Assembly (NCBI RefSeq): GCF_030013205.1
Contig: NZ_CP122648.1
From: Escherichia coli
Lineage (GTDB): Bacteria; Pseudomonadota; Gammaproteobacteria; Enterobacterales; Enterobacteriaceae
Strand: one strand, 5' to 3'
Length of the DNA: 64,000 nt
Below, one piece after another: positions 1,920 to 1,995 of the stretch. The translations under genes and the position numbers were made by a program. The notes below the pieces were generated by a model. It was not told the DNA's origin, made no database searches, and saw nothing but the letters and a program-made list of their open reading frames with translations. How positions within the stretch are numbered: position 1 is the stretch's first letter; every line of letters starts with the position of its first letter.

Positions 1920-1995
1920 GGGGCTATAGCTCAGCTGGGAGAGCGCTTGCATGGCATGCAAGAGGTCAGCGGTTCGATCCCGCTTAGCTCCACCA
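1920..1995 (+). tRNA. alaW: tRNA-Ala (anticodon GGC)
   Basis: 76 nt GGGGCTATAGCTCAGCTGGGAGAGCGCTTGCATGGCATGCAAGAGGTCAGCGGTTCGATCCCGCTTAGCTCCACCA; anticodon loop ATGGCAT gives GGC; ends in CCA. Only one copy in the window. Confidence 0.95.

Follow-up and report, generated by a model that had tools for sequence, protein, structure and literature searches.

A single tRNA-Ala(GGC) gene lies between yfeC and pdeA

The window, by which we mean the whole 64-kb stretch of Escherichia coli DNA analysed here, contains one tRNA gene in total. ARAGORN placed this gene, a tRNA-Ala with anticodon GGC, at 1920..1995 (+), and the same 76 nt matched Rfam family RF00005 with 63 bits (E = 2.7e-11), above the family's gathering score of 29. 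Every pair of the cloverleaf is standard and none is broken. The gene also carries the identity marks G3 and T70 (G3:U70 in the RNA), GGC at positions 34-36, and an encoded CCA 3' end; G3:U70 is the alanine identity pair recognised by AlaRS. The sequence is identical at 76 of 76 positions to both K-12 genes, and its location between yfeC and pdeA is conserved. By homology and position, we assign 1920..1995 as a tRNA (RF00005), as tRNA-Ala(GGC), and as the orthologue of alaW/alaX, and the remaining gene looks fully functional. Two neighbours served as synteny anchors: the divergent upstream gene yfeC (1340..1699, -), taken from the list of open reading frames and the RefSeq annotation of identical records, and the downstream gene pdeA (alias yfeA; 2203..4392, +), taken from the RefSeq annotation of identical records.

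Sites expected of a transcription unit flank the tRNA gene. A consensus scan detected a candidate sigma-70-type promoter at 1859..1887 (+), with the form TTGACA-17-TATGAT and 11 of 12 consensus matches; K-12 and K_EC180 have the same sequence ahead of their promoter-proximal gene. Directly after this promoter-like site is the G+C-rich stretch GCCGCCCG (1888-1895, +). Such a stretch after the promoter is typical of stringently controlled tRNA and rRNA promoters, and GCCGCCCG may be a discriminator of this kind. The precursor 5' leader would occupy 1888..1919 (+), between the promoter and the mature 5' end, and by general tRNA biology is presumably cut off by RNase P. Downstream, a predicted intrinsic terminator at 2003..2036 (+) consists of the stem-loop AACCCTCGCTGCAAAGCGGGGGTT (2003..2026) followed by a T-run; the terminator scan scored a 10-pair stem with 6 of 10 pairs G-C, a 4-nt loop, and a T-rich tail. 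Two- and three-copy arrays have this same sequence 3' of their distal gene. Thus, the sequence-only reading, which had reported a single tRNA-Ala(GGC) gene at these same coordinates, with its own promoter and terminator, between yfeC and yfeA, is confirmed by the single ARAGORN call and the Rfam score for the gene, and by promoter-like and terminator sites around it.

The window lacks exactly one period of a tandem repeat

K-12 MG1655 carries two identical 76-nt tRNA-Ala genes, 39 nt apart, in the yfeC-pdeA interval, as that reading had stated. The K-12 transcription unit is named alaWX (PMC11480407). The inter-gene spacer of two-copy genomes, marked by TGCACCCAGCAAATTTGGTACGTAAACGCATCGT, is 39 nt long and includes 34 nt of unique sequence. 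When the window was aligned to K-12 and to K_EC180, the sole structural difference was a clean 115-bp gap; the flanks of K_EC180 are 100% identical to those of the window, yet K_EC180 has two tRNA genes. Computed on K-12 and K_EC180, the two-copy locus contains an exact direct repeat of 81 bp (the tRNA plus AATTT) with a period of 115 bp. The equal lengths of gap and period imply that the window is missing exactly one period.

The 81-bp repeat segment, which is present twice in two-copy genomes, corresponds to 1920..2000 (+) in the window and would have served as substrate for a deletion and would now form its scar-less junction. The 64-kb window contains neither a second tRNA copy nor any remnant of the 39-nt inter-gene spacer. 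Upstream, the surviving gene is flanked by the sequence that precedes the promoter-proximal gene, and downstream by the sequence and terminator that follow the distal gene; the single tRNA-Ala(GGC) at 1920..1995 (+), supported by ARAGORN, Rfam, and its identity to K-12, is best described as an alaW/alaX hybrid. The window and K-12 alaWX share the 76-nt tRNA, its anticodon, the promoter region, the terminator, and the neighbours yfeC and pdeA, but differ in gene number (one in the window versus two in K-12), with the 39-nt spacer and one 76-nt gene absent from the window.

Copy number at alaWX varies across E. coli

Three junction-specific searches were run against a sample of 5,426 complete E. 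coli genomes. A tRNA-spacer-tRNA junction query was covered to at least 80% in 5,293 of the 5,425 genomes that had any match. A 196-nt one-copy query aligned without interruption in 132 genomes (2.4%), which is the exact complement of the 5,293 of 5,425. Finally, a spacer-tRNA-spacer query was fully covered in 52 records, corresponding to ≈50 genomes with at least three copies (0.9%), and all 52 are annotated 'tRNA-Ala (x3)' apart from one artefactual match and one duplicate record. The three-copy count was taken from the matches ranked by coverage, where 100% denotes three copies and the drop to 85% denotes two. A count of 1,914 obtained from a summary at '≥80% coverage' was rejected as inflated, because overlapping pieces had been joined.

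These counts give a distribution of one copy in ≈2.4% (132), two copies in ≈96.6% (≈5,243), and three copies in ≈0.9% (≈50) of genomes. The distribution predicts 10,768 chromosomal copies of the bare 76-nt gene (132x1 + 5,243x2 + 50x3), and 10,771 were found. All alaWX copy frequencies given here were derived in the present analysis and not from a published paper. A three-copy tRNA-Ala array that duplicates the chromosomal locus also occurs at 23562-23775 of a 50,485-bp record of strain Z0117EC0005 (NZ_CP098226.1); this record may be a piece of the chromosome that was submitted as a replicon of its own.

Genomes with one copy include the K-12 derivatives MC1061 and OV2, BL21(RP), KO11FL, O111:H8, and others. 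The one-copy haplotype of ETEC1716 has no IS between gltX and yfeD and encodes K-12-type YfeD and PdeA proteins, and that of O157:H7 EDL933 encodes its own protein variants. Judged from flanking sequence, one-copy alleles recur on independent haplotypes, namely those of the window, ETEC1716, and EDL933. As expected for an inherited allele, the three assemblies of EDL933, ATCC 43894, and its plasmid-cured derivative 277 all carry one copy. The comparison with reference genomes that the sequence-only reading proposed as a check shows the pair in ≈97% of E. coli; the single copy is not unique to this strain and is found in the EDL933 reference assemblies too.

One, two, and three copies occur within one swine ETEC lineage

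The window is identical base for base over 50 kb to ETEC4079 (NZ_CP122643.1), an isolate from swine faeces in Belgium, whose copy number is that of the deposited assembly alone. ETEC1748 is likewise one-copy and differs from the window by 1 SNP in 50 kb. This lone SNP is at window position 36554 in the evgA-emrK intergenic region (A in ETEC4079 and G in ETEC1748). A literature search returned no publication on the source or assembly method of the Belgian ETEC genomes.

At least eight clone-mates are two-copy (ETEC4069, ETEC4070, ETEC4071, ETEC4067, ETEC6333, ETEC6334, ETEC1701, and K_EC180). These show 100.0% identity to the window over 25 kb, span exactly 115 bp more, and contain the same spacer as other two-copy strains. 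Moreover, ETEC4068 (NZ_CP122681.1) and ETEC4075 (NZ_CP122652.1) have three copies in flanks identical to those of the window, with 5 SNPs in 48 kb separating ETEC4068 from the window. The occurrence of one-, two-, and three-copy isolates in this lineage indicates that the single copy of the window is a recent, derived state in swine ETEC and that the ancestral state of the lineage was two copies.

Some units of alaWX arrays carry substitutions

The promoter-proximal unit of ETEC4068 and ETEC4075 (1455-1530 in the extracted loci, corresponding to 1920-1995 in the window) contains two substitutions, G53A and C69T. G53A breaks the conserved G53-C61 pair of the T-stem, C69T converts G4-C69 to G4-U69, and together they change the cloverleaf energy from -26.9 to -21.7 kcal/mol. 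Among the 5,426 genomes, only ETEC4068 and ETEC4075 carry this allele. Two substitutions in the 76 nt of the first unit versus 5 SNPs in the 48-kb flank is an unexpected contrast, which could stem from selection being relaxed or altered on a copy that is surplus.

Sequencing errors at methylation motifs were considered as a source of G53A and C69T and rejected. Neither site is in GATC or CCWGG, and the same context is unchanged in units 2 and 3 of the arrays; therefore, real variation is more likely. C69T alone was found in the distal unit (401-476 of the extracted loci) of the two-copy strains ZF34, 53, and ET201, which came from swine in China, the environment in Switzerland, and a frog in China, respectively; six genomes gave 98.7% matches, and the statement on C69T covers these three, which were inspected.

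Repeat misalignment as the probable route of gene loss

We consider it likely, with a probability of about 0.8, that alaWX in the window was reduced from two tRNA-Ala(GGC) genes to one by repeat misalignment, and that this reduction is recent and derived. The ancestral order would have been promoter, alaW, 39-nt spacer, alaX, and terminator, with the 81-bp perfect repeat recurring at the 115-bp period. Misalignment of the repeats, through template switching or slippage in replication or through unequal sister-chromatid exchange, would remove exactly one period and leave one intact gene with the alaW promoter and the alaX terminator, and the same process in reverse would produce three-copy arrays. 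The sequence-only reading had likewise proposed copy-number change by recombination between identical tRNA genes, and four observations support this proposal: the indel is a whole 115-bp period, its breakpoints fall inside the 81-bp perfect repeat, products of contraction (132) and of expansion (≈50, with three copies) both exist, and one-copy alleles recur on independent backgrounds. Together, these observations are characteristic of recombination between misaligned direct repeats that lie close together. Slippage, template switching, and RecA-dependent exchange are indistinguishable from sequence, and any of the three could be the pathway. Withers and colleagues are said to have described gain and loss of tandem tRNA genes in E. 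coli in 2006 (RNA 12:933). No data on alaW or alaX were found in Raval et al. 2023 (PMC9981150).

RecA-independent deletions are prominent where direct repeats are shorter than 200 bp and no more than a few kb apart, and they are accompanied by repeat expansions, which have been attributed to template switching (PMC7145654). The events at alaWX resemble those in RecA-independent assays with 101-bp tetA repeats, which are interpreted as template switching at post-replication gaps, in that the repeats are shorter than 200 bp and nearly adjacent, exactly one period is lost, and expansions occur alongside deletions in the population (PMC7145654). They differ from the tetA events in being natural and chromosomal and in being known from end products in genome assemblies alone. 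Copy number also depends on strain at glyVXY of E. coli, which has three or four identical copies (PMC4539685); this is likewise a tandem array of identical tRNA genes, but at a different locus and for a different isoacceptor. In Pseudomonas fluorescens SBW25, large-scale tandem duplications reportedly alter tRNA gene dosage (PMC7661048, PMC10954465), so that tRNA copy number again shifts within populations through recombination-type events. The SBW25 duplications are large and were reportedly selected in the laboratory after deletion of a tRNA gene, whereas at alaWX a 115-bp unit was lost or gained in a two-gene array that is native, and nothing points to selection.

Alternatives to a recent loss

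A different account of the single gene is that the strain truly has two copies, the 115-bp tandem repeat having been merged into one unit during assembly or polishing. Tandem repeats are notorious for copy-number errors, this one is perfect over 81 bp, and near-identical isolates of one study are reported with all three copy numbers. Database entries for laboratory strains add to this concern. Four laboratory strains with accessions between CP081008 and CP083274, probably from one submitter, all have three copies (BL21(DE3) CP081489, Rosetta2-DE3, BL21-RIPL, and XL10-Gold), with canonical units, where the BL21(DE3) reference has two; and the BL21(RP) record (NZ_CP084683.1) contains aberrant 90-102-nt 'tRNA' annotations at 4489356-4492499, near its end. 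That stretch of BL21(RP) also has fragmentary CDSs and a partial match to the alaWX spacer query and is probably junk assembly. The three-copy cluster of laboratory strains and the BL21(RP) annotations imply that some database copy calls at alaWX are probably artefacts. For the window itself, collapse is unlikely, because ETEC1748, a separate isolate and assembly 1 SNP away in 50 kb, has the same single copy, and because the unique 34-nt part of the spacer would have to be discarded, which de Bruijn-graph and long-read assemblers would not normally do. The agreement on one copy among the three EDL933 assemblies, ATCC 43894, and derivative 277 also argues against collapse. So do the three-copy alleles of ETEC4068 and ETEC4075, which were assembled independently and share two SNPs, implying real heritable variation at the locus.

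If the gene number is real, the single copy could still be the ancestral state and the pair elsewhere a later duplication. A few Enterobacterales representatives do have one gene (Enterobacter cloacae DSM 26481, Pseudescherichia vulneris, Pantoea, and Mixta), but one-copy genomes are scattered among unrelated lineages, and a pair of the same or similar period is found in ≈97% of E. coli, in E. albertii, and in many Enterobacterales. The comparison with clone-mates effectively refutes this order of events: two copies, with the same spacer as in other strains, are present in isolates that match the window at 100.0% over 25 kb, which leaves an ancestral single copy with almost no credibility. The identical 76-nt tRNA is widespread in Proteobacteria, and it is arranged as a tandem pair, at a period of 114-142 bp, in E. 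albertii, Enterobacter, Superficieibacter, Citrobacter, Klebsiella, Dickeya, Photorhabdus, and Xenorhabdus. This spread across Enterobacterales indicates that the tRNA-Ala(GGC) pair is ancient and generally retained. A recent deletion could also have been selected, with tRNA-Ala(GGC) dosage undergoing adaptive tuning in the swine ETEC lineage. All three copy states do occur in this one close lineage, its three-copy allele has 2 substitutions in 76 nt against 5 SNPs in the 48-kb flank, and the strong minimal-medium phenotype of a full alaWX deletion means that dosage can matter (PMC11480407). However, the one- and three-copy frequencies of the lineage come from few isolates, both variants are rare species-wide (2.4% and 0.9%), and the pair is conserved across Enterobacterales; this rarity and conservation fit recurrent mutation under purifying selection better than adaptation, and we regard adaptive tuning as improbable. 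Hardly more probable is the broader proposal that alaWX is a fast-switching dosage locus under selection, at which the copy states and the G53A+C69T allele tune or neutralise the supply of tRNA-Ala(GGC).

Dosage and implications of the single copy

In the chromosome of ETEC4079, the tRNA-Ala(GGC) locus is matched at a single place. Since this is the sole tRNA-Ala(GGC) gene found there, gene dosage for the isoacceptor that reads GCC/GCU is, by gene count, halved. The GGC anticodon of alaWX reads GCC and GCU, and cells that lack alaWX entirely are viable, yet in minimal glucose medium at 37 °C they are 'very impaired', 530 genes are differentially expressed, and the UGC isoacceptors do not compensate (PMC11480407). 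The rarity of one- and three-copy alleles, the long conservation of the pair despite recurrent loss, and the impaired growth of the alaWX deletion suggest that two copies are favoured or maintained by selection and that one- and three-copy variants may be transient.

One-copy alaWX is an ordinary, recurrent copy-number polymorphism. The alaW/alaX gene, copy-number polymorphism of tandem tRNA arrays, and the one-copy state in public assemblies (EDL933) were already known; the species-wide frequencies and the occurrence of all three copy states within one lineage come from the present analysis, and they leave the category unchanged. Alone, the single gene is of little importance. It does call for caution in annotation and in tRNA gene counts, such as those used in tAI and codon-adaptation calculations: the tRNA-Ala(GGC) count of E. 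coli is not fixed at two, but is one in ≈1/40 genomes and three in ≈1/100, and it can vary within a clone. In addition, alaWX provides a natural readout of short tandem-repeat instability on the chromosome.

Other features of the window

Several further elements were observed in the window. Positions 1-906 (+) hold the 3' part of an insQ/TnpB gene (IS200/IS605-family RNA-guided endonuclease) between gltX and yfeD. This gltX-yfeD insertion is absent in K-12 and ETEC1716 and present in K_EC180 and EDL933 with a degraded tnpA. Two copies of IS200C are located at 4441-5032 and 30223-30814 (+), in the pdeA-nupC and yfdV-yfdE intervals, and each has an identical 124-nt match to Rfam STnc490 (146 bits) immediately upstream of the 459-nt tnpA. 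Downstream of pdeA, K-12 has an IS421 (IS4-like) transposase instead of IS200C.

According to the RefSeq annotation of an identical record, dsdX, which adjoins dsdA, is truncated, and the insertion at dsdX (≈40922-46267) is a sucrose-utilisation cluster with a LacI-family regulator, cscA, a kinase, and an MFS transporter. A prophage remnant extends from ≈46347 to 50000 and beyond and includes torI, fragments of a terminase small subunit and of gp4, a packaged-DNA stabilization protein, a NUMOD4 protein, and a truncated tail protein.
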